Origin: an uncultured Actinomycetota bacterium
GTDB taxonomy: Bacteria > Actinomycetota > Actinomycetes > Propionibacteriales > Nocardioidaceae
Length of the DNA: 64,000 nucleotides
NCBI GenBank assembly: GCA_963756795.1
Contig: CAVWPK010000012.1
Span: forward strand, 495,194 to 559,193
Direction: 5' to 3'
In this document: in pieces, positions 7,019 to 64,000 of the stretch
Layout: the number at the start of each line of letters is the position of its first letter
Numbering within the stretch: the first letter of the stretch is position 1
Made by a program: the position numbers and the translations under genes
The notes under the pieces: model-generated
What the model was told of the DNA's origin: nothing
Database searches by the model: none
What the model saw: only the letters and a program-made list of their open reading frames with translations

Positions 7019-7038
7019 CGTGCACGTGCTTGAGGGAA

Positions 7039-7524
7039 CTAGCTCGCAAGAACCTCGTCGAGGATGGTCTCTGCCTTGTCCTCGTTGGTGTGCTCGGCCA
7101 GCGCCAGCTCGGAGACCAGGATCTGCCGTGCCTTCGCGAGCATCCGCTTCTCGCCGGCGGACAGGCCACGGTCACGCTCGCGGCGCCAGAGATCGCGGAC
7201 GACCTCGGCCACCTTCATGACGTCTCCGCTGTGGAGCTTCTCCAGGTTGGCCTTGTAGCGACGCGACCAGTTGGTGGGTTCCTCGACGTGCTCGGCACGG
7301 AGGACGCCGAACACGCGGTCCAGGCCCTCCTTGTCGACGACATCGCGGACTCCGACCAGATCCAGGTTGCAGGCGGGGACCCGGACCACCAGATCCTGCT
7401 GGGCTACGATCCGAAGGACGAGGTACTGCCGCTCCTCTCCCTTGACTGTCCGCATCTCGATGTCTTCAATAACTGCGGCCCCGTGATTGGGATAAACGAC
7501 CGTTTCGCCGACGGTGAAAGTCAT
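7039..7524 (-). CDS. carD: CarD family RNA polymerase-binding regulator
   Basis: [34 protein letters not shown]. Confidence 0.97.
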
Positions 7525-7736
7525 ATGTGATGAACCCCTTCCTAGGGCTCTATCTTATCACGCCCGAGCGTCGCCCCAGAATGCGTTTGCGCAGGTCAGG
7601 ACGGCAATCGCGGGCTTGACAGACGCACGGTCATGTGGTGGGGAACCTCACAGCGGCTGGGGCTCGACCCGAATCGTCACGCGACACTCACCGGACCCGG
7701 CTGCGGCGCCGGAGCCCGTGGTCAATACTGCTCGCC

Positions 7737-8612
7737 ATGGGAGTGGACCGCGACGAGGACGCGCTTGAGGATGTCGACGTGCCCGAGGTCGAGCCCGAGC
7801 TCGAGGTCGAGCCCGAGGTCGAAGTCGAGCCCGAGGACGTCGAGATCGAAGTCGACGTCGAGGTCGACCAGGAGCCCGAGAGGACCGCCGCCCCGGGCCG
7901 GTTCGGCCGGTTGCAGTGGACCCCACTGCTCCTGGCCCAGGCCGCCCACGCCAAGCAGGCGGTCATCACCGCGTTAGCGATGGGCGGCGCAGCGGTGCTC
8001 GCGGAGCGACCGGCGCAGGAGGCTGGCGTCGTACTCCTCACCGTGCTGGTCGGTCAGACCATCCTCGGCTGGCACAACGACATCGTCGACAAGGCGCGCG
8101 ACGACGCGCACCGCACGCCCCGCAAACCGATCGCGGACGGCCGCCTGGACGTCGGCGCCGCGTGGTACGCGATCGTCGTCGCCGCCCTGGTCCTGGTCCC
8201 GTTGTCGGTCACCACCGGCATCACCGCCGGCGCCATCTACCTGGTGTCGGTCTGTGTCGGCATGCTCGGCAACGTCGTCCTCCGCACCGGCTTCTTCTCC
8301 TGGGTCACCTGGGCGGTGTCGTTCGCCATGCTGCCGGCTTACCTGTCCTACGGCGGCTGGGGCGGCCAGGCGGTCGGCGAACCGCCGGAGACGGCGATCA
8401 CGATCCTCGCCGGGTTGCTGGGCATCGGCGTCCACTTCATGCGCGCCGTCTGGGGCCTGGTCGCCGACCACGAGGACGGCTGGACCTACCTGCCGCTCAA
8501 GCTCGGGCTCAAGGTGGGCGCCACCCGCCTGCTCGCGATCTCGACGCTCTACACCGTCGGGATCGTCGTGGCACTGGCTGTCGTCGGCTACAACGTCGGC
8601 CTGTCCCGATGA
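7737..8612 (+). CDS. UbiA family prenyltransferase with an acidic low-complexity N-terminus
   Basis: WHNDIVD..D...RKPIADG first Asp-rich motif and multiple TM helices. ATG 7737 is preferred over 7635. Confidence 0.8.
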   Translation: MGVDRDEDALEDVDVPEVEPELEVEPEVEVEPEDVEIEVDVEVDQEPERTAAPGRFGRLQWTPLLLAQAAHAKQAVITALAMGGAAVLAERPAQEAGVVLLTVLVGQTILGWHNDIVDKARDDAHRTPRKPIADGRLDVGAAWYAIVVAALVLVPLSVTTGITAGAIYLVSVCVGMLGNVVLRTGFFSWVTWAVSFAMLPAYLSYGGWGGQAVGEPPETAITILAGLLGIGVHFMRAVWGLVADHEDGWTYLPLKLGLKVGATRLLAISTLYTVGIVVALAVVGYNVGLSR

Positions 8613-31121: not shown

Positions 31122-31249
31122 GCTGGGGCAACGTGAACTGGTTCACACCGGTTCCCGCGCCGGTCGACGAGGTCGCTCCGGGGACCGCCACGAGACCAGA
31201 GCCCAAGGCAATTCCTAGTGTCTTGCGTGGGTTTGGCAAGATACGGCGT

Positions 31250-33148
31250 GTGTCGCGCCCCCCTCTCCCCCAGCACTGCCCGTCGCCGCGGGAGCTGGAC
31301 GACCTCGAGCTGCTGTCGGTCGGGGCGATGGCGCCGACGCTCGGGTTCAACGAACCGGGCAGCCCGGTCACCCTCGCCCTTCCTGACGAGCGGGCGTCGG
31401 AGGTCGCCGCCGGCGGCTCGGTCGAGCTGGTCGACCCGGAGGGCCTGCCCCTGGCCACGGTCACCGGCCGTGGGTCGGGCTGGTCGGTCCGGCCGCTGAC
31501 CCACGCGCAGTACGGCCCGTTCCGCCGCCTCTACCTACGTCCGGCCGACGTCCGGCAGCGGTACGCCGGCCGCACCTTCGTCACCGTCACCGATGCGACC
31601 AGCGACGAGCAGCTCGCCCAGCTCAAGGGGCTGGGCGCCATCACCCTGCTGGCCCTCGTCGGTCGGGGCACCCCCGCGCTGTCCCCCGTCGGTCTGCTCC
31701 GGGCCACGCTGCGCGTGGCCCGCCTGGTCGCCGAGGACGGTCCCGCGGCCGACGTGGTCGCCGTACCCCTCGCCGCGCACGGCGACGTCGCGGCGGACGC
31801 GACCCTGCGCGCACAAGTGATCGCCAACTACGCCGGACCGGATCGCGTCGTTGACCTCGCTCCCGGCGGGGTGCCCACCGCCGCCGTCGCCGACATCGTC
31901 CGCGCCGACCGGCCCACGCCGGACGAGCAAGGTCTGGTTCTCTTCTTCACCGGCCTCTCCGGGAGCGGCAAGTCGACCCTCGCCCAGGCGCTGATGGACC
32001 GCCTGCTCGAGCGCGGTGGGCGGTCCCTGACCAGCCTCGACGGCGACGTCGTCCGCCGGAACCTGTCGGCCGGGCTGACCTTCTCCAAGGAGGACCGGGA
32101 GACCAACATCCGCCGGATCGGCTGGGTCGCCGCCGAGGTCGCGCGGCACGGCGGTGTCGCGGTCTGCAGCCCGATCGCCCCGTTCGACGACACCCGCCAG
32201 CAGGTGCGGCAGTACGTCGCCGACGCCGGCGGCGCGTTCTTCCTGGTCCACGTCGCGACGCCGCTCGAGGAGTGCGAGCGTCGTGACCGGAAGGGCCTCT
32301 ACGCCAAGGCACGCCGCGGCGAGATCCCGGAGTTCACCGGCATCTCCTCGCCCTACGAGGAGCCCCACGACGCCGACGTACGCGTGGACACCACCGGCCG
32401 CTCGATCGACGAGGCGCTGGACGACGTACTCGTCGCGCTCCGCGACGCGGGCTACCTCAACCTGGTCGATGACGCCGCCCCGACGGCCGGCCGGACCGAG
32501 CCGGCGCCTGCGGTGGTCGAGATGCGGCCCGCGCCGACACCGCGCGCCGAACCGGCCGACCGCGCCGGCGACGGAGTCCGTGCCGGGGCCGCCCATCTCA
32601 GCGTCCTCTTCGTCTGTACGGCGAACATCTGCCGCTCGCCCTACATGGAGCTGCGGGCGGGCACCCTCCTGCTGCCCGACGGCCCGGTCACGATCGAGCT
32701 CGCCAGCGCGGGCACCCACGGCTTCCGCAAACGCGGTGTCGACGAGACCATGGCCGGCGTCCTCACCGACCGCGGCGTGAGCGGCGAGCGTATCGCCGGG
32801 TTCCGCAGCCAGCCGCTGACCCGCGCGCTGGTCGAGGTCGCCGACCTGGTGCTGACCGCCGAGTCCAGCCATCGCGCCTACCTGCTCGAGGAGGCGCCGG
32901 GCGCCTTCCGGAAGGTCTTCACCCTCGGCCAGTTCGCGGACACCGTGGCCCGCGTCGACGCCCAGGTCGTCGGCCCGGACCTGGTCGCCTTCGCAGGCCA
33001 CCGCAGGGCGGCCGCGGACCCCCGGCACGAGATCAGCGACCCGTTCAGCCGCGGTCGGGCTGCTGCCAACCGGGCAGCCGACCAGATCGACGGCCTGTTG
33101 CGCGTCGTCATGCCCCGTCTGACGGGCTCAGGAAGGATCCACCGATGA
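31250..33148 (+). CDS. cysC: Adenylyl-sulfate kinase fusion: degenerate Sat-like N-terminus + APS kinase + LMW protein-tyrosine phosphatase
   Basis: FTGLSGSGKST, LDGDVVRRNLS.GLTFSKEDR, RDRKGLY.KAR.GEI..FTGIS.PYEEP; C-terminal LFVCTANICRSP and ISDPF. Confidence 0.9.
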   Translation: MSRPPLPQHCPSPRELDDLELLSVGAMAPTLGFNEPGSPVTLALPDERASEVAAGGSVELVDPEGLPLATVTGRGSGWSVRPLTHAQYGPFRRLYLRPADVRQRYAGRTFVTVTDATSDEQLAQLKGLGAITLLALVGRGTPALSPVGLLRATLRVARLVAEDGPAADVVAVPLAAHGDVAADATLRAQVIANYAGPDRVVDLAPGGVPTAAVADIVRADRPTPDEQGLVLFFTGLSGSGKSTLAQALMDRLLERGGRSLTSLDGDVVRRNLSAGLTFSKEDRETNIRRIGWVAAEVARHGGVAVCSPIAPFDDTRQQVRQYVADAGGAFFLVHVATPLEECERRDRKGLYAKARRGEIPEFTGISSPYEEPHDADVRVDTTGRSIDEALDDVLVALRDAGYLNLVDDAAPTAGRTEPAPAVVEMRPAPTPRAEPADRAGDGVRAGAAHLSVLFVCTANICRSPYMELRAGTLLLPDGPVTIELASAGTHGFRKRGVDETMAGVLTDRGVSGERIAGFRSQPLTRALVEVADLVLTAESSHRAYLLEEAPGAFRKVFTLGQFADTVARVDAQVVGPDLVAFAGHRRAAADPRHEISDPFSRGRAAANRAADQIDGLLRVVMPRLTGSGRIHR

Positions 33149-34533
33149 GCGAGCTGCTCACACTCACGGCGTTGTCGATCGTCGCCGCCGGCTTCTTCGT
33201 CGGCGTGGTCGTCGGCCTCACCGGCATGGGCGGCGGCGCGCTGATGACGCCGGCGCTGATCTTCCTCGGGGTGGGCCACACGGCGTCCATCGTCACCGCG
33301 GACCTGACCGCGGCCGCGATCTACAAGACCGGCGGTGCGATCACCCACGCCCGGGAGGGCTCGCCCAACCTGCGGCTCGCCGGCTGGCTGATCGCCGGCT
33401 CGGTGCCGATGGCGTTCGTCGGGCCCTATCTCGTCGACGCGCTGACCGATGACACCGAGCAGCTGGAGAAGACCCTCAAGCTCTGCATCGGCATCGCCCT
33501 GCTGTTCGCCGCGTCGACCTACGCGTTGCGGCTCTACATCAACCTGCGCCGGGTGCGGAGCGGTGCGGCGACCCCGGCGGAGAACCCGCGGATCCGCCCG
33601 GTGCCGACGCTGCTGGTCGGCATGCTGGGCGGCCTGCTGGTCGGCATCACCAGCGTCGGCTCGGGCTCGGTCATCATGATCGCCCTGCTCATGCTCTACC
33701 CGGGCCTGTCGGCGGTGAAGCTGGTCGGCACCGACCTGGTCCAGGCGGTCCCGCTGGTGCTGAGCGCGGCGATCGCCAACATCCTCCTGCACGGCCTCGA
33801 CTGGAACCTGCTGATCCCGCTGGTGATCGGCTCGGTCCCCGGCACCATCATCGGCAGCCGGATCGCGCCACGAGTGCCGCAGTCCTTCATCCGCCGCGGG
33901 ATCGTCGTGGTGCTGACCATGTCCGGCGTTGCCCTGCTCTTCAAGGCCGGGCTGCACCCGTTCGGCGAGGGCCACGACACCCTCGAGGCGATCACGGTCG
34001 CCGGCGTCGGCGTCGTGATGCTCGCCCTGGTCCCGATCGTGTGGGGGATGCTGCGCAAGCAGCACGGACTGCCGATGTTCGGAGCGCCCACGGTGGCCGA
34101 GCTGGAGAAGATCCCGGGCGACCGGCGGGCGAGGAAGGCAGCCCACAAGTCAGCCCACAAGCCAGACCAGACCTCGGACCAGACCAGACCAGACCTCAGG
34201 CCCGAAGCAGCCCGAGTCGCGACCGTAGCTGTCGCGAGGTCCCGGCCGACGACCTCGGGGGTCTGCCGCGCGGTGAGCTGCGGAGGCGTCCGGTCAGGGA
34301 CGGAGGGGCGATCGACACGTGCACAGCTGCCGGCACCGGCCGGTGCCGCTCACCACTCCCACAGGGCCGAGATCGGGAGGCCCCACATGCCGGGGCGGTA
34401 CTTGAACCCCACGGACGCGGTGTTGAGCACGATCCCGCCGCGGAACCGGGAGCCCGCGCGGGCCGCGAGCGACTCGAGCGCCCGGAACTGGTGCGGGCGG
34501 AAGCCGGCCGCCGTCCGGATCTCGACCCCGTAG
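33145..34533 (+). CDS. TauE/SafE family sulfite/sulfonate exporter with a long low-complexity tail
   Basis: VGLTGMGGGALMTP, GITSVGSGS, LVGTDL, GSVPG..IGSR. The last ~140 aa look non-homologous. Confidence 0.85.
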   Translation: MSELLTLTALSIVAAGFFVGVVVGLTGMGGGALMTPALIFLGVGHTASIVTADLTAAAIYKTGGAITHAREGSPNLRLAGWLIAGSVPMAFVGPYLVDALTDDTEQLEKTLKLCIGIALLFAASTYALRLYINLRRVRSGAATPAENPRIRPVPTLLVGMLGGLLVGITSVGSGSVIMIALLMLYPGLSAVKLVGTDLVQAVPLVLSAAIANILLHGLDWNLLIPLVIGSVPGTIIGSRIAPRVPQSFIRRGIVVVLTMSGVALLFKAGLHPFGEGHDTLEAITVAGVGVVMLALVPIVWGMLRKQHGLPMFGAPTVAELEKIPGDRRARKAAHKSAHKPDQTSDQTRPDLRPEAARVATVAVARSRPTTSGVCRAVSCGGVRSGTEGRSTRAQLPAPAGAAHHSHRAEIGRPHMPGRYLNPTDAVLSTIPPRNREPARAASDSSARNWCGRKPAAVRISTP

Positions 34534-35132
34534 ACCGTGTCGTCGGGCAGTTCGACGAGGAGGTCGACCTCGAGCCCGTTGCGCTCGCGCAGGTGGCTGA
34601 GCCGGTAGTCCACCTCGCTGGCCTCGCGCTGCCGCAGCAGCTCGGCGATGGCGATGCCCTCGAGCAGGGGCGCGAGTCGGCTCCGGCCCTCGAACGCGGT
34701 CAGCCGGTCCGTGGACACGCCGGCCAGGTGGCGGGCGACGGCGGGGTCGGTGAAGACCACGCGCGGACGCTGGACCGCCCGCTTCGCCACCGGCGACCGC
34801 GATCCGGGCAGCAGCCGGACCAGACCGAGCCGTTCGACGACGTCGAGGTACGGCGAGATCGTGGTGGCCGGGATGCCGGCGAGGTCTGCGAGCCGCGCCT
34901 TGTTGAGCTCCGTCGACGGCGGTCGGGCGAGGGCCGCGGCGAGCGCCAGCAGGCGAGCGGGTTCCAAGCGGCGCAAGGACCGGGCGGCGCCGTACGCCAT
35001 CCGGTGGAGCTCGTCGTCGATCCCGTCGTCGCGGGCCATCAGCGCGACGTACTCCCCCACACCCCACCGCGAGTGCACCTCGTCCGGCACCGATGCCCGC
35101 GACCCGAGCCGGGCGACGAGATCGGCGGTCAC
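34350..35132 (-). CDS. DUF4143-domain protein (AAA+ ATPase/PD-(D/E)xK C-terminal part; no Walker A)
   Basis: YLDVVERLGLV, RPRVVFTDP, LLEG....ELLRQ, HLRERNGLEVDLLVE, GVEIR. Start uncertain. Confidence 0.7.
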   Translation of the reverse strand: MTADLVARLGSRASVPDEVHSRWGVGEYVALMARDDGIDDELHRMAYGAARSLRRLEPARLLALAAALARPPSTELNKARLADLAGIPATTISPYLDVVERLGLVRLLPGSRSPVAKRAVQRPRVVFTDPAVARHLAGVSTDRLTAFEGRSRLAPLLEGIAIAELLRQREASEVDYRLSHLRERNGLEVDLLVELPDDTVYGVEIRTAAGFRPHQFRALESLAARAGSRFRGGIVLNTASVGFKYRPGMWGLPISALWEW

Positions 35133-35232
35133 GGGCAGCAGCCTATGCGGAGGAGGGGACAAACTCGTAGATTTGTCTACGTCGTTCGCGCCGATGTCAC
35201 GCTGAAAGCCGGTGCATGGCACGATGCTCCGC

Positions 35233-36147
35233 ATGTCCCAGACCCACGCTGACTACCGGTTGAGCCAACTCGACCAGCTCGAGGCCGAGTCGATCCACAT
35301 CTTCCGCGAGGTCGCGGCCGAGTTCGAGAAGCCCGTCCTCATGTTCTCCGGCGGCAAGGACAGCATCGTGATGATGCGCCTCGCCGAGAAGGCCTTCTAC
35401 CCGGCCAAGATCCCGTTCCCCGTGCTGCAGGTCGACACCGGCTACGACTTCCCCGAGGTGCTCGCCACCCGCGACAACTGGGTCAACCGGCTCGGCGTCC
35501 GGCTGATCGTGGCGTCGGTCGAGGAGGCGCTGGCCAACGGCGTCGTCGTCGACGACGGCAAGACCAGCCGCAACCGCCACCAGATCGGCACCCTGCTCAA
35601 CGCCATCGAGGAGAACGGCTTCACCGCCGCCTTCGGTGGTGGCCGCCGCGACGAGGAGAAGGCGCGGGCCAAGGAGCGGGTCTACTCGCACCGCGACGAG
35701 TTCGGTCAGTGGGACCCGAAGATGCAGCGCCCCGAGCTGTGGAACCTCTACAACGGCCGGATCCACGAGGGCGAGCACATGCGGATCTTCCCGATCTCCA
35801 ACTGGACCGAGCTCGACATCTGGGACTACATCGGTCGCGAGGGCATCGAGATCCCGACCATCTACTACTCCCACCAGCGCCGGGTGTTCGAGCGCGACGG
35901 CATGCTGCTCACCGAGAGCGAGCACAACCCGTGCCGTCAGGGCGAGGTGGCAGCCGAGCGGACCGTCCGGTTCCGCACCGTCGGTGACCTGACCCTGACC
36001 GGCTGCGTCGAGAGCACGGCGTCCACGATCGACGAGATCATCGCGGAGGTCGCGATCGCCACCGTCACCGAGCGTGGCGCGACCCGTGGTGACGACCGGT
36101 TCTCCGAGGCCGCCATGGAAGACCGCAAGAAGGAAGGCTACTTCTGA
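35233..36147 (+). CDS. cysD: Sulfate adenylyltransferase subunit 2
   Basis: LEAESIHIFRE, FSGGKDS, GGGRRDEEKARAKER, VRFRTVGD, MEDRKKEGYF. Confidence 0.97.
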   Translation: MSQTHADYRLSQLDQLEAESIHIFREVAAEFEKPVLMFSGGKDSIVMMRLAEKAFYPAKIPFPVLQVDTGYDFPEVLATRDNWVNRLGVRLIVASVEEALANGVVVDDGKTSRNRHQIGTLLNAIEENGFTAAFGGGRRDEEKARAKERVYSHRDEFGQWDPKMQRPELWNLYNGRIHEGEHMRIFPISNWTELDIWDYIGREGIEIPTIYYSHQRRVFERDGMLLTESEHNPCRQGEVAAERTVRFRTVGDLTLTGCVESTASTIDEIIAEVAIATVTERGATRGDDRFSEAAMEDRKKEGYF

Positions 36148-37418
36148 TGAGTACCACCAACCAGGGAATGGGCATGGACCTTCTGCGGTTCGCGACGGCC
36201 GGCTCGGTCGACGACGGCAAGTCCACCCTCATCGGCCGGCTGCTGCTGGACTCGAAGTCGATCTTCGAGGACCAGCTCCAGGCCGTCGAGGCGACGAGCA
36301 CGTCGAAGGGCTACGACTACACCGACCTCGCGCTGCTGACCGACGGGCTGCGCTCGGAGCGGGAGCAGGGCATCACCATCGATGTCGCCTACCGCTACTT
36401 CGCGACGCCCAGCCGCAAGTTCATCATCGCCGACACCCCGGGCCACGTGCAGTACACCCGCAACATGGTGACCGGCGCCTCGACCGCCGACCTCGGCCTG
36501 GTGCTCGTCGATGCCCGGCAGGGCCTCACCGAGCAGTCCCGCCGGCACGCGGTCATCTTGTCGCTGCTCCGGGTCCCGCACCTGGTGCTGTGCGTCAACA
36601 AGATGGACCTCGTGGACTTCTCCGAGGAGATCTACGAGAAGATCCACTCCGAGTTCACGCAGTTCGCGACCAAGCTGAACATCCCGGACCTCGAGGTCAT
36701 CCCGATCTCGGCGCTCAACGGCGACAACGTGGTCAACCGCTCCGAGAACATGGACTGGTACTCCGGTCCCACGCTGATGCACCACCTCGAGCACGTCCAC
36801 GTGGCGTCCGACCGCGATCTGATCGACGCGCGGTTCCCGGTGCAGTACGTCGTACGGCCCAAGTCCGACGAGTTCCACGACTACCGCGGCTACGCGGGCC
36901 AGGTCGCCGGCGGTGTGCTGAAGCCCGGCGACGAGGTCGTGGTCCTGCCCTCCGGCATGACCTCGCGGATCTCCCGGATCGACCTGTTCGACCAGGAGGT
37001 CACCGAGGCGTTCCCGCCGATGTCAGTGACCGTGCACCTCGAGGACGACGTCGACGTGTCGCGGGGCGACATGATCGCCCGGGTCAAGAACGCGCCGGAG
37101 CCCCTCCAGGACATCGACGCGATGGTCTGCTGGATGACGACGACGCCGCTCAAGCCGCGGCAGAAGCTGGCCATCAAGCACACCACCCGCACCGGTCGCG
37201 CTCTGGTCAAGGACATCCAGTACCGCCTCGACGTCAACACGCTGCACCGCGACCAGGAGACCAAGGAGCTCGGCGTCAACGAGATCGGCCGCGTCCAGCT
37301 GCGCACCACGGTGCCGCTGCTCAGCGACCCCTACGCCAAGAACCGCGCCACCGGATCGTTCATCCTGATCGACGAGGCGACCGGCGTCACCGTCGGCGCC
37401 GGCATGATCAACGGCTGA
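36147..37418 (+). CDS. cysN: Sulfate adenylyltransferase subunit 1 (no fused APS kinase)
   Basis: TAGSVDDGKSTLIGRLL, EREQGITID, DTPGH.QYTRNM.TGAS, NKMD, GSFILID. Confidence 0.97.
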   Translation: MSTTNQGMGMDLLRFATAGSVDDGKSTLIGRLLLDSKSIFEDQLQAVEATSTSKGYDYTDLALLTDGLRSEREQGITIDVAYRYFATPSRKFIIADTPGHVQYTRNMVTGASTADLGLVLVDARQGLTEQSRRHAVILSLLRVPHLVLCVNKMDLVDFSEEIYEKIHSEFTQFATKLNIPDLEVIPISALNGDNVVNRSENMDWYSGPTLMHHLEHVHVASDRDLIDARFPVQYVVRPKSDEFHDYRGYAGQVAGGVLKPGDEVVVLPSGMTSRISRIDLFDQEVTEAFPPMSVTVHLEDDVDVSRGDMIARVKNAPEPLQDIDAMVCWMTTTPLKPRQKLAIKHTTRTGRALVKDIQYRLDVNTLHRDQETKELGVNEIGRVQLRTTVPLLSDPYAKNRATGSFILIDEATGVTVGAGMING

Positions 37419-54595: not shown

Positions 54596-56428
54596 TCAGC
54601 AAGCGCTGCGCAGCGTCGTGGCCGACGAGCCCAGGAAGGCTCCTGGAGTCACGTCGAGCTCCACCGGGCCGGTCTGGCCCGGACCGGTGCGGAGCACGAA
54701 CTCGATCTCCTGCGTCTCGCCCCGGTCGAGCACCGTGACGACCTGGGCGACCGGTCGCCCGTCGAAGTCCTCGGTGACCACCGGGTCGAACGACCGCGAC
54801 TCGAGCGAGAGGTCCTCGATCTTCCCGTCGACGGGAGCCATCACGTAGACGGCGATCCGTTGCTGTCCGGGGTCGATCTCGTCGAAGAACCGGCCCCCGG
54901 GGAAGATGCCGGAGACCGACGGCGGAACCTCCAGCCCCTCGGGAACCGCATTGGTCAGCCGGATCGACCCGGCGACCTCCTGGGTGTACCCGGAGCAGGA
55001 GCGCGCGACCGCGACGGCTTCGTAGTCCAGGTAGTAGGTCATCTTGGACTCGAGCGCGTCGTTGACGTAGATCCCGACCTGGGCCTGCCCGTCCGCGGTC
55101 TCCAGCTCGCCGGCGATCTCGGTGTCGGCGATGTGCTCCTGCTCGGCGTCGACGAAGCTGTGCATCCGGATCCGACCCTCCGTGACGGCGGTGACCAAGG
55201 CACGGATCACTTCGACCGGGTCGCCGCGACCGGCAGCGAACGCGTTGAAGACCGCCTTGGCGACGGCGTTCTGGAAGTCCTCCTGCTTCGCCCGGTCGGT
55301 CACGGTGAGATAGATCTGGTTCTCGACCTTGGCGACGACGTCGACCGAGGTCACCGGCCCGTAGCCCGGTACGCCGACCGGGCCGGTCGCGGCGAGCAGG
55401 TAGGACACCGCGACCGGGTCGATGAAGAAGACGCCGTCGACGCGCCCGCCGAGCTCCTGCTGCCAGCGGGCCGCAGCGAACTTCGCTGCCCGGGTCGCGT
55501 CAGGAGTCATGCTGGCGTTCATGAACCACTGACCGAGAGTGGGTCCGAAGACCGCCTTCTCCCCGGGGGTGAGCGGGATGACGGGGCGGTTGATGGCGCC
55601 GTACTTGGAGGTTCCCTCCTGCTGGACGATCTCCACCTCGCCGGCGTCGGCGTGGATGAGCGAGATCGATCCGGCCAGGCCGCCCATGCTCCGCAGCTCC
55701 GCGTTGTTCTCGAACACGAGCAGGTGATCCCGCGCGGTCTCGGCGCCGAGCAGGCTGGGCATCAGGTCGGCGGCACGATAGGCGGAGCCGAGCGTCGCGC
55801 GGGCATCGAGGACGATGGACCGCAGCTCGGTGAAGCTGGTCGCGACGGGTCCGAGGAGTCCGCCCTCATCCACCGCCTCGAGCGCCGCGGCCGCGTCGTC
55901 GAACGCCTCCTCGCTCTCGCGGGCCGGCTCCCCGACAGACGAGATCGTCTCGAGAGGGAACCGGTTGTCCGCCGGGTTGAAGGAGCGTGCAGCGACCAGC
56001 TCGGCAGCGTCGACCAGCTGGGGGATGCCGTCGTTGCCGAGGTCGTCCAGCACCCGCGCGGCCGTGGCGACTGCCTCGGCATCGTCCCCGAAGCCCGGCA
56101 GCCGCTCGAGGGTCCACCACGTCGGACCGTCGGTGTGGCCGCGCGCACTGCCCGCGGCCGCCTGATAGCGCTCCAGCGCCCGGCTCGCACCGTCCGCGTC
56201 GCCGTTCTGGAGCTCCTGGCGCAGCAGCCGGGCGCTCCGCTCGACCTCGGTGAGGTCCTCGGCCGCTGACCACGCTGTCCAGCCGGCCCACATCAGAAAG
56301 AGGGCCACGACGACCGCTCCGCCGGCCAGCACCATCCGCGACGGGCGCTCCCGCAGCCAGGGCCAGAACGCCCGCAGTCCGCGTGGACGGCTGCGACGGC
56401 GGACCACGGGAGACACGCGGCACAGCAT
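54596..56428 (-). CDS. DUF4012 domain-containing membrane protein
   Basis: N-terminal TM, long helical region, FENNAELRSMGG..GS, IDPVAVSYLL..GPV, N....K..YYL. Confidence 0.88.
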   Translation of the reverse strand: MLCRVSPVVRRRSRPRGLRAFWPWLRERPSRMVLAGGAVVVALFLMWAGWTAWSAAEDLTEVERSARLLRQELQNGDADGASRALERYQAAAGSARGHTDGPTWWTLERLPGFGDDAEAVATAARVLDDLGNDGIPQLVDAAELVAARSFNPADNRFPLETISSVGEPARESEEAFDDAAAALEAVDEGGLLGPVATSFTELRSIVLDARATLGSAYRAADLMPSLLGAETARDHLLVFENNAELRSMGGLAGSISLIHADAGEVEIVQQEGTSKYGAINRPVIPLTPGEKAVFGPTLGQWFMNASMTPDATRAAKFAAARWQQELGGRVDGVFFIDPVAVSYLLAATGPVGVPGYGPVTSVDVVAKVENQIYLTVTDRAKQEDFQNAVAKAVFNAFAAGRGDPVEVIRALVTAVTEGRIRMHSFVDAEQEHIADTEIAGELETADGQAQVGIYVNDALESKMTYYLDYEAVAVARSCSGYTQEVAGSIRLTNAVPEGLEVPPSVSGIFPGGRFFDEIDPGQQRIAVYVMAPVDGKIEDLSLESRSFDPVVTEDFDGRPVAQVVTVLDRGETQEIEFVLRTGPGQTGPVELDVTPGAFLGSSATTLRSAC

Positions 56429-56566: not shown

Positions 56567-58087
56567 GTGGATTTCAAGCAGTTCTTGCTGGTACTGCGTC
56601 GTCGCTGGCGAAGTGTCGTCCTCGTCTTCCTGCTCGCCGTCGGAGTGGCCGGCGGGATCTCCTACGCCCTCACGCCGATGTATGAGTCGACGGCCAAGGT
56701 CTTCCTGTCCGTCAACACGAAGAGCGCCACCGACGCCTCTGCGGTGACGTACTTCCTCAACACCCGGGCCCAGTCCTACGCGGACCTCGCCCAGAGCTCT
56801 GAGCTGGCCGGGCGCGTGATCGAGGTGCTCGACCTCGACAAGACGCCGGCCGAGCTGTCGAGCCAGGTCTCGACCGAGGTGGTCGAGGAGACGTCCCTGA
56901 TCATGATCACCATCTCCGACGAGAACCCCAACGAGGCGCAGACGATCGCCGACGTGGTGACCAGCGAGTTCCAGGCCTACACCGAGGAGCTCGAGACTGT
57001 CGGCGACAGCGGCGAGTCGCAGGTGGTCGTCCACATCACCGACCCGCCCGAGTACGACGGCAGACCGGTCAGCCCCAACTGGCTGCTCAACATGCTCGCC
57101 GGTGGGCTGATCGGGCTGCTGGTCGGCCTGGCACTCGCCGTCTCCCGGGAGCTGCTCGACCGCACGGTGCGCACTGCCGACCACATCGCCGAGGTCACCG
57201 ATGCGCCCGTCCTCGCGAGCATCGGCTTCGACTCCGACATCCGATCCGCGCCGCTCCTCACGGACCTCGGCGCGTTCGCCGTCCGGACCGAGGCGTTCCG
57301 CCTCCTCCGCACGAACCTCCAGTTCATCGACCTCGACCAGCGGGCACGCGTGCTCGTCGTCACCAGCGCGGTGCCGGGCGAGGGCAAGACGATGACGTCG
57401 ACCAACCTGGCGGTCGCACTGGCCCAGACCGGTCGCACCGTGCTGATCATCGACGCCGACCTCCGACGGCCACGGGTGGCCAGCTCGCTCGGCGTCGACC
57501 CGGCCATCGGTCTGACGACCGCACTGGTCGGCAAGACCCAGATCGAGGACGCGATCCAGGTGCACGAGCCCAGCGGGCTGCACGTGCTCGCGAGCGGCGC
57601 CAAGCCGCCGAACCCGACCGAGATCCTCCAGTCGCGGGTGACCCACGACCTCATCCGGCGGTTGCGGCAGTCCTACGACATGATCATCATCGACGCGCCG
57701 CCGCTGCTGCCCGTCGCCGACGCCTCGGTGCTCTCGACGCTCGCCGACGGCTCGATCCTGGTCGTCCGGCACGCCCAGACCACGCGCGACCAGATCAAAG
57801 AAGCAGTCAACCGCGTCAACCAGGTCGGCGGTCGGTTGTACGGAGTCGTCGTCAACATGGTCGCGAAGCGGGCGATCGGCAGCTACTACTACTACTACTA
57901 CGAGGAGACGTCCCCGATGCGGGACGGCAAGGGCCGCAACAACACGCCGAAGGCCAAGGCGAAGGCCAAGGCGACGCCCAGGAGCACCGGCGGCACCCGC
58001 AAGGCGCTGACTCCCTCATCGTCCTCATCGTCATCTCCCGCTGAGGACAGCGCCCCGGAGGACGGCGGCAGGCGCAAGGCCGAGTAG
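56567..58087 (+). CDS. Polysaccharide co-polymerase / tyrosine autokinase (Wzc/CpsCD fusion)
   Basis: Wzz-like N-terminus, EAFR.LRTNL, Walker A SAVPGEGKT, IDADLRRP, IIDAPP, Tyr cluster SYYYYYYEE. Confidence 0.95.
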   Translation: MDFKQFLLVLRRRWRSVVLVFLLAVGVAGGISYALTPMYESTAKVFLSVNTKSATDASAVTYFLNTRAQSYADLAQSSELAGRVIEVLDLDKTPAELSSQVSTEVVEETSLIMITISDENPNEAQTIADVVTSEFQAYTEELETVGDSGESQVVVHITDPPEYDGRPVSPNWLLNMLAGGLIGLLVGLALAVSRELLDRTVRTADHIAEVTDAPVLASIGFDSDIRSAPLLTDLGAFAVRTEAFRLLRTNLQFIDLDQRARVLVVTSAVPGEGKTMTSTNLAVALAQTGRTVLIIDADLRRPRVASSLGVDPAIGLTTALVGKTQIEDAIQVHEPSGLHVLASGAKPPNPTEILQSRVTHDLIRRLRQSYDMIIIDAPPLLPVADASVLSTLADGSILVVRHAQTTRDQIKEAVNRVNQVGGRLYGVVVNMVAKRAIGSYYYYYYEETSPMRDGKGRNNTPKAKAKAKATPRSTGGTRKALTPSSSSSSSPAEDSAPEDGGRRKAE

Positions 58088-58089
58088 CC

Positions 58090-58674
58090 GTGCTGAGCAC
58101 GATCGAGGCAGACCTCCGCGCGAACGTCGACCACACGATCCGCACCGGGCTCGGTTTCTGGGTCTGGGTGATGGGCAAGGCGATCGTGGCACCGCAGGTG
58201 CAGGTCGTCGTACTCCACCGGTTCGCCTCGGCGCTGGCGCACACACCGCTGCGTCCGCTCGCCTTCCTCCTCCGCTCGATCGGCCTGGTGTGGTCCGGGG
58301 CGGAGATCCACCCCGACGCCGAGCTCGGACCGGGCCTCGCGCTGGTGCACTCCAACGGCGTGGTGATCGGTCCTGGCGTCCGCACCGGTGTCGACTGCCG
58401 GATCAACCCGGGCGTCGTCCTGGGGGAACCCGGCCGGGGCAGCTCGGGTGACTACGGCTTCCCCGTGCTCGGCGACCACGTGACGATCGGCGCACATGCC
58501 GTCGTGCTCGGCACCATCCACATCGGCGACGGCTCCGTCGTCGGCGCCAACTCCGTGGTCCGCGGTGACGTCCCCGCCAACGTTGTCGTCATCGGGTCGC
58601 CGACCAAGATCGTGCGCCGACTGGTGCCCTACGAGGACGACCCGACCCGCGCGACGGCGGCACCCGCCGGGTAA
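58090..58674 (+). CDS. Hexapeptide-repeat O-acetyltransferase (CysE/WcaB-like)
   Basis: EIHPDA.LGPGL...H, P.LGDHV.IG, IGDGSVVGANSVV..DVP. Confidence 0.88.
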   Translation: MLSTIEADLRANVDHTIRTGLGFWVWVMGKAIVAPQVQVVVLHRFASALAHTPLRPLAFLLRSIGLVWSGAEIHPDAELGPGLALVHSNGVVIGPGVRTGVDCRINPGVVLGEPGRGSSGDYGFPVLGDHVTIGAHAVVLGTIHIGDGSVVGANSVVRGDVPANVVVIGSPTKIVRRLVPYEDDPTRATAAPAG

Positions 58675-58726: not shown

Positions 58727-59935
58727 TCAGCGAACGGCGAGCAGCTCCTCGAGCACGTCCTCCACCACGTCGACCGGGATGTCGATGTCGTCGACGATGC
58801 CCGTCGGCTCCCGGCCCTCGGGCAGCGTGCCGGCACCGACCAGGTAGCGGTAGTGGATGCCGCCGATCGCCTCGGCGATCGTCCAGAGTCCGAGGTGGAC
58901 ATAGCTGCCCGCGAACAGCTCGAGTACCCGGACCCCGGGGCGGCTCCAGGTGAGGTTCGTGAGCGCCGCGCCGTGGGGCGCGATGATCACCTCGGCGCCG
59001 AAGAAGACGTCGATCTGCTCCTGCACGGTCAGCGTGCCGGGGTCGAGCATGACGAAGCCCCGCGCCTCGAGCCGCGGCCAGAGCACGGACTCTTGGAGAT
59101 AGCGCCGCCCGCCGGGCTGCTGCCCGCGGGAGAGGTAGAGCCGGGCGGGGGTGCCGGTCCGTCCGCTCGGGGGCAGTCGCTTACGCAGCCACTCGGTGGC
59201 CGAGCGAGGCGCGTCGAGGTCCTGGTTGGGCGTGCTCGGGACCAGGAGCCGGTCGGCTCGGATGGTCCGGTCTGCGCGGGGCTGGACGAAGGGGCCGGTG
59301 ATCCCGGCCAGCTCCAGGATCTGGCGCTGGTAGCCGCTCTGGTGCGGCACCACGATCGCGTCGACCCGCTCGCCCGGAAGGGTCTCCTCGAAGATGCCGT
59401 AACGGGCGACCGCGTCGTAGAGGAAGTGGTAGTAGTTCACGGCCGTGCCACGGGCGGTGAGGCTCAGCACGGTGCCGGCGACATGCTCGATCTGGGGCAG
59501 CCGCGGCCCCAGGAAGACCGGGTGCTCGCGCCAGCCGGCGAGACCGAAGTAGCCACTGGTCTGGTAGTCGAGGATGCCGCCGGGCGTCACGGTCGCCGCG
59601 TAGTCGCCGACCAGCCGGCCGTCACGTACGTCGAGCAGATAGCGGGCCGGGATCTCGGCATGGCGACCGCGCTCGAAGACCCAGTGCCGGGGTGGCCGGC
59701 CCGAAGCGGGGCCGCGCTCGACGATCTCCGCCGGGCCGTCCGGGTGGAGCGTGACCGCGCCCGGCTCCCGTGCCGCCGTCTCGGCGGAGGCGACGGTCGC
59801 GGTGCGGGGCAGGCCGCGATCACCGAGCAGCCGGCCGAGTGGACGGAACACCACGCCGGCGAGCACGGACAGGAAGCGGTGCACCCGCTTGAGGACCGGC
59901 CACGCGGGCTGCAGCCTGGCGGGAAGTCTGCTCAC
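58727..59935 (-). CDS. Glycosyltransferase family 61 (DUF563) protein
   Basis: NYYHFLYD, LYLSR, EQIDVFFGAEVII.PHGAALTNL.W, VLELF. Confidence 0.9.
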   Translation of the reverse strand: MSRLPARLQPAWPVLKRVHRFLSVLAGVVFRPLGRLLGDRGLPRTATVASAETAAREPGAVTLHPDGPAEIVERGPASGRPPRHWVFERGRHAEIPARYLLDVRDGRLVGDYAATVTPGGILDYQTSGYFGLAGWREHPVFLGPRLPQIEHVAGTVLSLTARGTAVNYYHFLYDAVARYGIFEETLPGERVDAIVVPHQSGYQRQILELAGITGPFVQPRADRTIRADRLLVPSTPNQDLDAPRSATEWLRKRLPPSGRTGTPARLYLSRGQQPGGRRYLQESVLWPRLEARGFVMLDPGTLTVQEQIDVFFGAEVIIAPHGAALTNLTWSRPGVRVLELFAGSYVHLGLWTIAEAIGGIHYRYLVGAGTLPEGREPTGIVDDIDIPVDVVEDVLEELLAVR

Positions 59936-60975
59936 TGCCCCACCAGCCGGCGTACGACGCGCCAGACGACCGGGATCTCCAGCACCCGGCGCACCACGGC
60001 TCGCATCCAGAGCGGCCGGATCAGCCTGCGGGCCAGCCGCGAGAGCCGGCCGTCGGTCCGGAGCAGCACCAGCTCGAGCTCGCCCTCGGCGTCGCGGTTG
60101 AGCTCGACCACCGGCGGGTGCTGGAGCGGGAAGTCGAGCGACTCGGCCGGCACCGGCAGCTTGTCGGCCCGGGTGTGGGTCGCTCCCTCGCCGTACCCGT
60201 CGTGCTCGACGAGGTTGACGCACGGCATGACCGACAGCCCCTGGCGGGACATGATCGTCACCCACCAGTGGTGGTCCCAGCCGTAGCGGTCGCCGTCGGG
60301 CTCGGTGGACACGAACGTGAAGTGCCGCAGCGCGGCCTCGGTGACCAGCGCGTCGGGGTGGGGTACGGCGGGGTGGGTGCGCTGGGCGGGCGCGGTGCGG
60401 GGGATCTCGTCGACCCGGTCCTCGGCACCGGCATGGTCGCGGTTGAACTCGGCCCGGTGGTCGTGCCAGCGGTCCGCCCAGGTCGCCCAGCCCCACACGC
60501 TCGCCCAGGTGCTGAAGCCGTAGCTGTGGCCACCGAACATCTCCTTCGGGACCAGGTGGGTGTCCCCGCCGATCTGCCAGATCCGCTTCTCCTCGGCGTA
60601 ACGGCCGAGCAGCTCGTCGGCGTACCGGAAGAACGACGGGTCGGGGATGCAGTCGTCCTCGAGCACGATCGCCCGGTCGACCTGGGAGAACACCCAGTCG
60701 AGGCCGAGCTCGACGTTGGCCTCGAGCCCGAGGTTGCGCTCGGCGTACTTGCGCTCCACCTTGCACGGCCAGTCGATCTCGCCGACGAGGTCGCGTACGG
60801 CGGCGCACCGGGCAGCCTCGTCGGGCCGGTCGGGGCGCGGCCCGTCGGCGACGATGAACAGCTGCTCGGGCCGCACCTGTCGCAGCACCTCGAGGTTGCG
60901 CCGGGTGACGTCCGGGCGCCGGAAGACGATCAGGACGACCGGCGTCTGCAGCCCGTCAGCGGGCACGATCAGCAC
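59932..60975 (-). CDS. GT-A-fold nucleotide-diphospho-sugar transferase-like protein (HlpA-like)
   Basis: FRRPD, ADGPR, LEDDC.PDPSFF, WGWATWADRW, WDHHW. Confidence 0.75.
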   Translation of the reverse strand: MLIVPADGLQTPVVLIVFRRPDVTRRNLEVLRQVRPEQLFIVADGPRPDRPDEAARCAAVRDLVGEIDWPCKVERKYAERNLGLEANVELGLDWVFSQVDRAIVLEDDCIPDPSFFRYADELLGRYAEEKRIWQIGGDTHLVPKEMFGGHSYGFSTWASVWGWATWADRWHDHRAEFNRDHAGAEDRVDEIPRTAPAQRTHPAVPHPDALVTEAALRHFTFVSTEPDGDRYGWDHHWWVTIMSRQGLSVMPCVNLVEHDGYGEGATHTRADKLPVPAESLDFPLQHPPVVELNRDAEGELELVLLRTDGRLSRLARRLIRPLWMRAVVRRVLEIPVVWRVVRRLVGQ

Positions 60976-61996
60976 TCCTCTGTGTCATCCGGGAAGCGAC
61001 GCGCGCGGCACTGGTGGCGGCGCGGCTGTTGACCGCCGCCCGAGCGGCGCGGCGCAGTCTAGGCGACCTGATCAGCCTGCGGCCCAGTCGGGCCGCCGGG
61101 CCGCCGACCCGGTTGAGGTGGAGCTCCAGCTCGCGCTCGACGTCGACGTCGAGCGCCACCTGTTCCGGGTGGCGCAGCGGGAAGTCCATCGGCTCGGCCG
61201 GGTCGTCCTCGCGGCCCGGCGAGTACCCGTGGGTCGCGTCCTCCCCGAACCCGCTGTTGACGACCAGGTTCCCCGACGGTGCGATCGCCAGTCCCCCCTC
61301 GGACATGATCGTGATCCACCAGTGCTTGTCCCACCCGTGGGTGACCACGTCGGACGACCGAGCGGCCTCGGCGAAGTGCCGCTGACCGGCCCGGGTCACC
61401 AACGTCCCTGGCGCCGGTACGGCGGCCACGGTGCGGGTGGGCGCGTCACCGGCATCGGCGGCGGAGCGTCGTACGTGATCGCGCGGGAAGACGGCGCGGT
61501 GCCGCTGCCAGCGGTCGGCCCAGGTCGCCCAGCCCCAGACGCTCGCCCAGGTGCTGAAGGCATAGCTGTCGCCCTTGTAGAGCCTGCGTGGTACCCCGTG
61601 CCGGTTGCCGGCGATCTGCCACACCCGGTCGTCGTCGCGATAGCGGTCGAGGAGCTCCTCGGCGAACCGGAAGAAGGTCGGGTCCGGCGTGCAGTCGTCC
61701 TCGAAGATCATCGCCGCGGACACCTGCGAGAAGACCCAGTCGAGGCCGAGCTCGACGTTGCCCTCGACGCCGAGGTTGACCTCCGAGAAGCGCCGCCGGA
61801 CGTCGCACGGCCAGTCGATCTCGTCGAACACCGCTCGGGTCTCGGCGCACAGCGCCGCATCCTCGGGCCGGTCGTCGCGCGGTCCGTCCGCCACGAGGAA
61901 CACCTGCTGGGGTGCGGCTTCCCGGATCGCGGCGAGGGTGCGGCGAGCCAGGTGGGGGCGATTGAACGCGATCAGCACGACGGGCGTGGAGAGCAC
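60956..61996 (-). CDS. GT-A-fold transferase-like protein, paralog of the adjacent gene
   Basis: FNRPH, ADGPR, FEDDC.PDPTFF, WGWATWADRW, WDKHW. GTG 61996 follows an AGAAAGG RBS. Confidence 0.75.
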   Translation of the reverse strand: MLSTPVVLIAFNRPHLARRTLAAIREAAPQQVFLVADGPRDDRPEDAALCAETRAVFDEIDWPCDVRRRFSEVNLGVEGNVELGLDWVFSQVSAAMIFEDDCTPDPTFFRFAEELLDRYRDDDRVWQIAGNRHGVPRRLYKGDSYAFSTWASVWGWATWADRWQRHRAVFPRDHVRRSAADAGDAPTRTVAAVPAPGTLVTRAGQRHFAEAARSSDVVTHGWDKHWWITIMSEGGLAIAPSGNLVVNSGFGEDATHGYSPGREDDPAEPMDFPLRHPEQVALDVDVERELELHLNRVGGPAARLGRRLIRSPRLRRAARAAVNSRAATSAARVASRMTQRSADRAR

Positions 61997-62081: not shown

Positions 62082-63158
62082 GTGCCCCCCTCTGAGAGCC
62101 AGCTCGTCGCAAAGCTGAAGCGTGCCAACCCTTCCCTCGCGAGCTCCTGGGCCAAGCGTCAGGTGCGGTCGGTGGCCGCTCGCGGCGGCTACCTGGTCAC
62201 CAAGATGGACGACGAGGCCCGCCGCTACGCGCGGGTCTCCCACAACGACGCGGTGCCGCTGCCCGAGGGCGCGGAGGAGACCCTCCGCGTGGACAACCCC
62301 AAGCTCGTGGAGCTGCAGGCGAAGTACGACGCCCTCGACGTGTCGGCGACCGCGCACACCCAGTGGCGCCAGTCCTTCCTCAAGCGCAACCTGTCACTCG
62401 CCTGGTTCCGCGGCGACAACGCCTACGTGTGGCAGTTCCGCCAGCTGCGCAACGCCGCCAACGCCCGGATGTACCTCACGCTGCTCGACGTGGAGTCCCG
62501 CGACCGGCTCGGCCTGCTCAAGCGGCTGGAGGAGGACGGGAAGTTCGGCGCGTGGACCTTCACCTACGGCAACCGGTCCCCGGTGAGCCGCGACCTGCTC
62601 GACAGCGTCAACGAGATCAGCTACCTCGACGCCCAGATGGGCCTGAGCAGCATCGACTCGCTCAAGGTCCTCGACATCGGCGCCGGCTACGGCCGGCTCG
62701 CGCACCGGGCGTCGGCCGCGCTGCCCAACCTGTCGGCGTACGACTGCATCGACGGCGTCGCCACCTCGACGTTCCTGTGCGACTACTACCTCGACTACCG
62801 CAAGGTCCCGAAGTCGGTGCGGGCGGTGCCGCTGCCCGAGTGGGAGACTCTCGCCGACGACTACGACATCGCGATCAACGTCCACAGCTTCTCGGAGTGC
62901 TCGCTCGAGGCGATCGGCTGGTGGCTGGACCGGATCGCGGAGCGCAACATCGACTGGCTGTTGATCGTGCCGAACACCCCGCACCAGCTGCTCAGCACCG
63001 AGCTCGACGGCTCGATGCAGGACTTCGCCCCGATGGTCCGCGCGGCCGGCTACGTGCAGGTCGACGAGCGGCCGGTCTTCGAGAACGACGAGCTCCGTGA
63101 GCTGATCGACCTGCACGACACCTTCCACCTGTTCCGTCGGTCGGGGTCCGGTTCGTGA
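62082..63158 (+). CDS. Putative sugar O-methyltransferase
   Basis: SRDLLDSVNEI, VLDIGAGYGRLA, INVHSFSEC. Start approximate. Confidence 0.82.
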   Translation: MPPSESQLVAKLKRANPSLASSWAKRQVRSVAARGGYLVTKMDDEARRYARVSHNDAVPLPEGAEETLRVDNPKLVELQAKYDALDVSATAHTQWRQSFLKRNLSLAWFRGDNAYVWQFRQLRNAANARMYLTLLDVESRDRLGLLKRLEEDGKFGAWTFTYGNRSPVSRDLLDSVNEISYLDAQMGLSSIDSLKVLDIGAGYGRLAHRASAALPNLSAYDCIDGVATSTFLCDYYLDYRKVPKSVRAVPLPEWETLADDYDIAINVHSFSECSLEAIGWWLDRIAERNIDWLLIVPNTPHQLLSTELDGSMQDFAPMVRAAGYVQVDERPVFENDELRELIDLHDTFHLFRRSGSGS

Positions 63159-64000
63159 GGAAGGTCGTCGGCGACGACGAAAGGGCTCGATCCACCCTCT
63201 GGATGGAGGAGAGGCTGCGGCGCTACTCCGCAGCGACCACCCACCGGATCCTCGCGAGACGGGGACAGTCGCTGGGCATGTGGATGGGAGTCGGGTTCCC
63301 GAAGTCCGGCACCAACTGGCTCTGCGAGCTGATGGGCACGACCCTCGGGCTGCCGGTCCCGGTCGACTACCAGCTGCCGATCATGTTCAAGTCAGTCGTC
63401 CACTCGCACTACACCTACAACGAGCGGTTCCCCAACGCGGTCTACATCCGACGCGACGGACGCGACGTGATGACGTCGTTCTACTTCTACTGGACCCGCG
63501 CGACGCAGATGAACAAGAACCCCCGGTTCTCCCGCGGGATCCGCGAGATCTTCGACCACCTCTACGGACCGGCGTTCGACGCGGCGGACGTGCAGGGCAA
63601 CCTGCCGAAGTTCATCGAATACCAGATGACCGTCGCCCCGACGACGATCGGCATCCCGTGGCACGCCCACGTGCGGGAGTGGTGGGACCGTCCTCGGGTC
63701 GGTCACGTGACGTTCGAGGGCCTGCTCGCCGACCCGGTCGAGGAGATGGTCCGGGCGCTCCGTGCCGCGAGCGGCGAGGACCCGCGCCGGGACCTGGTCG
63801 AGCTCGCCGTGCAGCGGCACGACTTCTCCAACAGTGCCGGCCGCACCTCGGGCGAGGAGGACCGGCGCGCATTCCGGCGCAAGGGAGCGTCGGGCGACTG
63901 GCGCAACCACTTCACCCGCGAGGCGGGCCAGGTCTTCGACTCCTACGCCGGCGCCGAGCTGGTCGAGTTCGGCTACGCCGCCGACCGCACCTGGTTCGAA
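63155..64000 (+). CDS. PAPS-dependent sulfotransferase (Sulfotransfer_1), 3'-truncated by the window edge
   Basis: Translated by hand: 5'-PSB GFPKSGTNW, 3'-PB RDGRDVMTSFY, C-terminal RKGASGDWRNHF. The GTG overlaps the previous TGA. Confidence 0.92.
   Translation, partial: MRKVVGDDERARSTLWMEERLRRYSAATTHRILARRGQSLGMWMGVGFPKSGTNWLCELMGTTLGLPVPVDYQLPIMFKSVVHSHYTYNERFPNAVYIRRDGRDVMTSFYFYWTRATQMNKNPRFSRGIREIFDHLYGPAFDAADVQGNLPKFIEYQMTVAPTTIGIPWHAHVREWWDRPRVGHVTFEGLLADPVEEMVRALRAASGEDPRRDLVELAVQRHDFSNSAGRTSGEEDRRAFRRKGASGDWRNHFTREAGQVFDSYAGAELVEFGYAADRTWFE

Follow-up and report, generated by a model that had tools for sequence, protein, structure and literature searches.

The window analysed here is a stretch of 64,000 nt from the genome of a soil Nocardioides, of 4.14 Mb and 70% GC (G000:C12:495194-559193). 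At its downstream edge lies a gene, hereafter ST1, that encodes a sulfotransferase of the type that uses 3'-phosphoadenosine 5'-phosphosulfate (PAPS) as sulfate donor, and its start codon overlaps the end of a methyltransferase gene (MT). Positions beyond the edge were read in the flanking DNA (L004; window position = L004 position + 60806) and are given as window equivalents. The gene pair, its junction and the motifs of ST1 are the following.

62082 to 63158 (+): MT, class I S-adenosylmethionine (SAM)-dependent methyltransferase, 358 aa, start codon GTG at 62082, motif I VLDIGAGYGR
63155 to 63158 (+): GTGA overlap, with the GTG of ST1 at 63155-63157 and the TGA of MT at 63156-63158
63155 to 64000 (+) in the window, true end 64009: ST1, PAPS-dependent sulfotransferase, 284 aa (open reading frame, PF00685, phmmer on PDB, AlphaFold2/Foldseek, dN/dS)
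63296 to 63319 (+), residues 48-55: 5'-phosphosulfate-binding loop FPKSGTNW (K50), which aligns with PKSGTTW of SULT1E1
63407 to 63409 (+): His85, candidate catalytic base (VVHSH), at the end of the strand 81-84
63449 to 63484 (+), residues 99-110: 3'-phosphate-binding motif RRDGRDVMTSFY (R100, S108), which aligns with RNAKDVAVSFY of SULT1E1
63875 to 63913 (+), residues 241-253: C-terminal PAPS motif RRKGASGDWRNHF, which aligns with RKGITGDWKNHF of SULT1E1

The reading frame of ST1 opens with the GTG at 63155 and is still open at the 3' edge of the window, which holds 282 of its residues. In the flanking DNA it closes two codons further on (…DRTWFEGL*), 9 nt past the edge, and the complete protein of 284 aa ends where its homologues end in the alignment. 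The initial annotation had proposed extending the sequence and looking for a frameshift or stop that would destroy the fold: none is present, and a truncation is ruled out, since the stop codon coincides with the end point of the homologues. The same annotation had called the gene unannotated. It is indeed missing from the list of reading frames of the window, but only as an edge effect, and its orthologues at NCBI carry the name "sulfotransferase domain-containing protein". An internal ATG at 63203 is ruled out as the start codon, because residues 5-16 (VGDDERxRxTLW) and the GTG of the GTGA overlap are conserved. The GC content at third codon positions is 0.93, like that of other genes of the genome, and comparisons with seven orthologues gave dN/dS values of 0.15-0.33.

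The family assignment, including the proposed check with the PF00685 profile, held in every search. ST1 matches Pfam PF00685 (Sulfotransfer_1) with 65.1 bits (E 8.3e-18, cut-off 22), a scan of the whole genome with this profile gives 53.7 bits at its position, and the match to PF13469 is under the cut-off (16.9 bits). When the sequences of the PDB were searched with phmmer, the matches were sulfotransferases only, nearly all of them named cytosolic SULTs; the best was human estrogen sulfotransferase, SULT1E1 (E 1.4e-12), and all three PAPS motifs align in it. The AlphaFold2 model of ST1 (pLDDT 86.9, pTM 0.85) has low confidence in the loop of residues 228-244, which overlaps the first residues of the C-terminal motif. 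Among its 50 best PDB matches, Foldseek lists nothing but sulfotransferases, headed by SULT1E1 (E 4.9e-8), and the top SULTs are matched with probability 1.00 and TM scores of 0.55-0.59 at 17-21% identity.

The three PAPS-binding motifs that had been recognised at the outset are all in the translation, and their key residues are invariant in an alignment of 19 homologues reaching down to 30% identity. These are P49, K50, G52, W55, H85, R100, D101, G102, R103, D104 and S108 in the first part of the protein, and R242, G244, G247, D248, W249 and F253 in the C-terminal motif. R100, D104 and S108 fit the RxxxDxxxS strand-turn-helix pattern by which the 3'-phosphate motif is defined (PMC11625862). 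The HMMER alignment to SULT1E1 skips the segment of SULT His107/108; in ST1, H83 is nearly invariant and H85 fully so. H85 is a candidate for the catalytic base and may be the counterpart of the histidine in the "KTH" of SULTs, an equivalence that comes from its position after the strand and its invariance rather than from the alignment. From the Pfam and phmmer matches, the invariant motifs, the predicted fold and the dN/dS values, ST1 is, judged as a sequence, an intact sulfotransferase gene under purifying selection and of the "cytosolic" SULT type.

ST1 shares with SULT1E1 (PDB 1hy3/1aqu; PF00685) the fold, the PKSGTxW loop, the RxxxDxxxS pattern, the RKGxxGDWxNHF motif and a histidine after a beta-strand. 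The two nevertheless superpose with an rmsd of 5-6 Å at the low identity given above, and the bacterial protein has an additional N-terminal helix (residues 12-36). The segment from the phosphosulfate-binding loop to the histidine has 35 residues in ST1 and about 60 in SULT, and His83 stands at the position of the SULT lysine in "K-T-H". The acceptor of SULT1E1 is a steroid or phenol, whereas the genomic context of ST1 points to a glycan. Sulfation of carbohydrate hydroxyls in the bacterial cytoplasm is known from the glycolipid sulfotransferases NodH and mycobacterial Stf0, which are PAPS-dependent and occur with a dedicated adenosine 5'-phosphosulfate (APS) kinase (PMC11625862). However, these enzymes are absent from the PDB and Pfam matches of ST1, and the PF13469 signature of NodH is found on a second sulfotransferase of the locus, ST2.

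The partner gene had been described as a sugar O-methyltransferase, of which the second half stands. The GTG start at 62082 was set by homologues of 356-359 aa that begin with MPPSESQ; VLDIGAGYG of motif I is invariant (D198-G204). Over the C-terminal 190 residues, Foldseek pairs the AlphaFold2 model (pLDDT 75) with many class I methyltransferases at probability 1.00, among which there is no sugar-specific enzyme. The score on NCBIfam TIGR04371, 39.8 bits for the full length and 40.3 bits for the truncated sequence, does not reach the cut-off of 44. A specific sugar O-methyltransferase assignment is thus unsupported, since the NCBIfam, PDB sequence and fold searches return only the generic class I family: "methyltransferase" is solid, and "sugar O-" is weakly founded, on the context, the match below the threshold and the name "putative sugar O-methyltransferase" that NCBI gives to the orthologues. 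The methyltransferase family is also much the larger, with at least 2801 matches among the scored candidates against 124 for the ST1 family.

The GTGA overlap, which the initial annotation had taken to imply a single operon, is real and conserved. Of 13 other Nocardioides-type loci that were examined, eight keep the junction and the coding sequence that follows it, (I/V)VGDD(E/D)R: both N. panacisoli records, N. pelophilus, N. antri, N. stalactiti, N. humilatus and two metagenome assembled genomes (MAGs). In three others, those of a MAG, N. sp. MH1 and N. silvaticus, a short insertion follows the methyltransferase stop codon. The two genes are adjacent in every Nocardioides-type locus where ST1 identity exceeds 73%. 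Four-base overlaps are frequent in actinobacterial operons, and it is reasonable to infer that MT and ST1 are co-transcribed and translationally coupled.

Upstream of this pair, the window holds a set of genes typed as follows.

54596 to 56428 (-): DUF4012 membrane protein, adjoining the tyrosine kinase (PF13196, 130 bits; syntenic)
56567 to 58087 (+): Wzz/PCP protein fused to a BY-type tyrosine kinase ATPase (PF02706, PF13614, PF13807)
58090 to 58674 (+): hexapeptide-repeat O-acetyltransferase, EpsC/CysE-like, under the equivalog cut-offs
58727 to 59950 (-): GT61-family glycosyltransferase (PF04577, 77 bits; syntenic)
59932 to 60975 (-): GTx1, paralogue of GTx2 (53-57% cross-identity by tblastn; no Pfam match)
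60956 to 61996 (-): GTx2, GT2-like glycosyltransferase, 346 aa (PF00535, 23.5 bits, at the cut-off; syntenic in at least 12 loci)

GTx2 is divergent from MT, with a spacer of 85 bp between them. GTx1 and GTx2 are tandem paralogues conserved with the GT61 gene in all related loci; only GTx2 barely attains the Pfam threshold of GT2, and the two appear to form a poorly described glycosyltransferase family. Past the window end, the flanking DNA has the following genes.

64016 to 64846 in window equivalents (L004:3210-4040, -): ST2, second sulfotransferase (PF00685, 49.5 bits; PF13469, 43.9 bits)
66444 to 68639 in window equivalents (L004:5638-6666, -, and 6862-7833, +): two divergent paralogues of about 25% identity with FGDSA and VSDSS motifs (no Pfam or NCBIfam match)
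70146 to 73360 in window equivalents (L004:9340-12554, +): lipid-type module of an 85-aa protein resembling acyl carrier protein (ACP), an SDR ketoreductase, a CMAS-like methyltransferase and an acyl-AMP ligase

ST2 is convergent with ST1, with 6 nt between their stop codons, and carries the motifs GAQKSGTT and VLRDPVARAYS. The two have no significant BLASTP similarity, which rules out a recent duplication. ST2 overlaps the end of a gene whose multi-pass membrane product looks like a Wzx flippase. Searches of NCBIfam and Pfam with this protein, GTx1 and the downstream proteins of 342 and 323 aa returned no matches. The paralogues with the FGDSA and VSDSS motifs may serve the cluster as SGNH-type esterases or acyltransferases, and a methyltransferase is also encoded in this downstream part.

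The block from DUF4012 through the tyrosine kinase, acetyltransferase, GT61, GTx1 and GTx2 to MT-ST1 is syntenic in N. pelophilus, N. antri, N. panacisoli, N. stalactiti and N. humilatus, and likewise in N. silvaticus, N. sp. MH1 and several MAGs; together with the gene of the Wzx-like protein it is syntenic in at least 12 genomes. ST1 identity reaches 90% in N. pelophilus and 89% in N. antri. ST2 has a narrower distribution and was found in only three of the syntenic genomes (N. pelophilus, N. antri and N. humilatus). In most Nocardioides loci, synteny with the glycan cluster extends to the ACP, ketoreductase and ligase genes; for the CMAS-like gene this holds in only four. Of the 36 genomes sampled from this GTDB genus, three have ST1-like genes and one has the methyltransferase; therefore, the glycan cluster is an accessory island.

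Relatives of ST1 are encoded by 347 of 185,579 species genomes, mostly in Actinomycetota and Planctomycetota; those from actinobacteria group in a single clade (SH-aLRT 95). Distant homologues lie in Wzx/Wzy polysaccharide clusters, often with multiple sulfotransferases. The one of Arthrobacter castelli is in a cluster with LCP, Wzz-BY-kinase, low-molecular-weight (LMW) phosphatase, Polysacc_synt and Bac_transf genes and four sulfotransferases. Another, on a metagenome contig, is found with Wzy_C, GT61 and methyltransferases, and a third, in an Acidobacteriota MAG, with Wzy_C, a WecA-like gene, GT4, a sulfatase and three sulfotransferases.

The initial annotation had also placed the synthesis of PAPS in the upstream part of the window, and the genes are there (31133-37418), 26-32 kb from ST1.

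31133 to 33148 (+): APS kinase (CysC) with a C-terminal LMW phosphatase domain (PF01583, 195 bits; PF01451, 56 bits)
35212 to 36147 (+): CysD (PF01507)
36147 to 37418 (+): CysN (PF00009 with PF22594)

CysD and CysN make up the sulfate adenylyltransferase that produces APS, and CysC is the PAPS-forming step; a homologue of TauE-family sulfite exporters is encoded among them. The genes between these and the glycan cluster are of the housekeeping type (YgfZ-like, nitrobindin-like, Dtd, thioredoxin, rhodanese). Within the reading frame of the APS kinase, the kinase domain occupies residues 266-419 and the LMW phosphotyrosine-phosphatase domain residues 491-607; free-standing LMW phosphatases are usual partners of BY-kinases in polysaccharide clusters.

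That ST1 is the likely consumer of this PAPS is correct in so far as it is one of several. Eight places in the genome score above the PF00685 cut-off, ST1 and ST2 included, which suggests an extensive predicted capacity for sulfation in this Nocardioides; the others are at C12:582001, 283241, 212014, 213991, 225706 and 702461. APS kinase is encoded in 31 of the 36 genomes of the genus, including every genome that is at least 90% complete, against the three with ST1 and the one with the methyltransferase. Given these counts and the eight matches, a PAPS supply dedicated to ST1 is ruled out: ST1 and ST2 lie closer to the PAPS genes than the other sulfotransferases do, but are not their sole clients.

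Building on the integrity, family, motifs, fold and conservation of ST1, the overlap and the cluster context, we propose that ST1 is probably an active cytoplasmic PAPS-dependent O-sulfotransferase which, with MT, ST2, the acetyltransferase and the glycosyltransferases, decorates a cell-envelope glycan at the stage of a lipid-linked unit, before export. CysDN and CysC would provide PAPS in the cytoplasm. ST1, through K50, H85 and S108, would transfer sulfate onto a sugar hydroxyl of the lipid-linked unit built by GT61, GTx1 and GTx2. Since PAPS is only cytoplasmic, sulfation would most likely take place at the inner membrane face, on this unit or on its sugar. ST1 and MT would be made from a two-gene transcript, with the GTGA overlap probably coupling their translation, and MT, ST2 and the acetyltransferase would add further decorations. 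The Wzx-like protein would then flip the unit, and the Wzz-tyrosine kinase and DUF4012 proteins would control assembly or export.

This mechanism is modelled on two known systems that resemble the locus in cluster content. In Synechocystis PCC 6803, the xss cluster for synechan, an extracellular polysaccharide, has the sulfotransferases XssA and XssE in a Wzx/Wzy setting, and its sulfated product was shown chemically (PMC8205485). As at the ST1 locus, where ST1 and ST2 are likewise dissimilar, the two enzymes are of distinct subfamilies in a Wzx/PCP cluster, and the modification was proposed to occur at the cytoplasmic face before flipping. The differences are that the system is cyanobacterial and has XssQRS-type regulators, of which none was seen at the ST1 locus. 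The second system, wps-1 of Actinoplanes missouriensis, comprises the sulfotransferases WpsB and WpsH, the methyltransferase WpsF, Wzx/Wzy/Wzz and an adjacent sulfate adenylyltransferase/APS kinase gene, and a sulfated polysaccharide has been proposed as its product, awaiting chemical verification (PMC13390465, 2026). It shares with our locus an actinomycete Wzx-type cluster with two sulfotransferases of different families, a methyltransferase and nearby genes of the PAPS pathway. However, it belongs to Micromonosporaceae and to a sporangium matrix, and has a GH26 protein and a kinase where the ST1 locus has GT61 and DUF4012.

Several observations weigh against a glycan-decorating role. No priming transferase or Wzy was recognised in the immediate cluster, the Wzx-like protein lacks a Pfam match, and a consensus scan found no promoter or terminator around the MT-ST1 pair. 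The closest solved relatives of ST1 act on small hydroxylated molecules, not on glycans, and the lipid-type module lies 6-9 kb downstream. Finally, no sulfated glycan from Nocardioides is reported in the literature searched; the search for sulfated glycopolymers of Nocardioides or actinomycete cell walls gave only the Actinoplanes prediction.

The small-molecule relatives and the lipid-type genes are also what would favour another acceptor, a small molecule or lipid such as the product of the ACP, ketoreductase, CMAS-like and acyl-AMP ligase module, by analogy with mycobacterial sulfolipids and sulfated polyketides. The nearest solved structures are all small-molecule SULTs, the module is retained in synteny in most Nocardioides loci, and in N. 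panacisoli a PapA_C acyltransferase is encoded beside it. We nevertheless consider such an acceptor unlikely. The lipid-type genes are separate transcription units beyond ST2, the Wzx-like gene and two divergent genes, the distant homologues of ST1 in Arthrobacter, Acidobacteriota and the metagenome contig are in glycan clusters without such genes, and the most tightly conserved partners of ST1 are the glycosyltransferases and the methyltransferase.

A slightly less probable alternative keeps the glycan as acceptor and changes the role of the modification: MT and ST1 would add a methyl and sulfate cap at the non-reducing end, ending chain growth and setting its length, instead of modifying every repeat unit. 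In O-antigen systems such as that of Escherichia coli O9a, with WbdD, terminal methyl or phospho-methyl caps end the chains, and the overlap of MT with ST1 and their constant adjacency in Nocardioides loci would agree with a joint capping step. Yet known capping systems use pathways with ABC transporters, and a scan of the genes between 31 kb and the window equivalent of 73 kb showed no such transporter but a Wzx-like protein and a Wzz/tyrosine kinase; in addition, two other methyltransferase genes separate MT from ST1 in one related contig. A protein (tyrosine) sulfotransferase or an inactive, non-catalytic relic is very improbable: although Pfam by itself leaves the acceptor undefined and the relatives of GT61 include protein O-glycosyltransferases, every PAPS-binding residue is invariant, ST1 is under purifying selection, and the context is consistently glycan-related, with neither a peptide precursor nor RaxST-like genes.

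If the decoration of an envelope glycan by ST1 is confirmed, the locus would lead to a chemically verifiable sulfated polysaccharide in actinomycetes, a candidate for the first proven one. Sulfated polysaccharides have value as biomaterials and are well documented from animals, algae, cyanobacteria and a few marine bacteria; those of actinomycetes have so far only been predicted from gene clusters (PMC13390465). Our results add candidates that are cultured and tractable (N. pelophilus, N. antri, N. panacisoli and others), which share a compact, conserved cluster where a methyltransferase and two unrelated sulfotransferases occur together, with genes for PAPS synthesis nearby. The type of enzyme is conventional, as are the operon overlap and the cluster logic, and ST1 marks a bacterial SULT-like subfamily whose acceptor is probably a carbohydrate. 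Going further, we tentatively suggest, at somewhat less than even chances, that a subset of soil Nocardioides and other Actinomycetota makes an envelope glycan that depends on Wzx and carries O-methyl groups as well as sulfate at two different positions, the sulfate being added to the lipid-linked unit by the SULT-like ST1 and the NST/NodH-like ST2. ST1 would then belong to a glycan-acting bacterial clade of "cytosolic-type" SULTs shared with Planctomycetota, and the MT-ST1 overlap would yield equal amounts of two enzymes that perhaps act on the same sugar residue.

The rest of the sulfate assimilation pathway bears on the use of PAPS in this genome. Both CysH-like proteins carry the CC…CxxC iron-sulfur motif of APS-type reductases, so that cysteine synthesis probably proceeds with no need for PAPS; the TIGR02055 score, 226, is just under the cut-off of 235. 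On this motif, the gene content suggests that PAPS serves sulfation and not cysteine synthesis. Outside the window, at G000:C11:346092-348563 (+), a CysH-like APS/PAPS reductase and a domain resembling UDP-sulfoquinovose synthase are encoded in one uninterrupted frame. The reductase half has the CC, CxxC and ECGIH motifs and the synthase half scores 334 bits on NF041015, under the cut-off, and the protein may be a sulfite-channelling fusion for the synthesis of sulfoquinovose.

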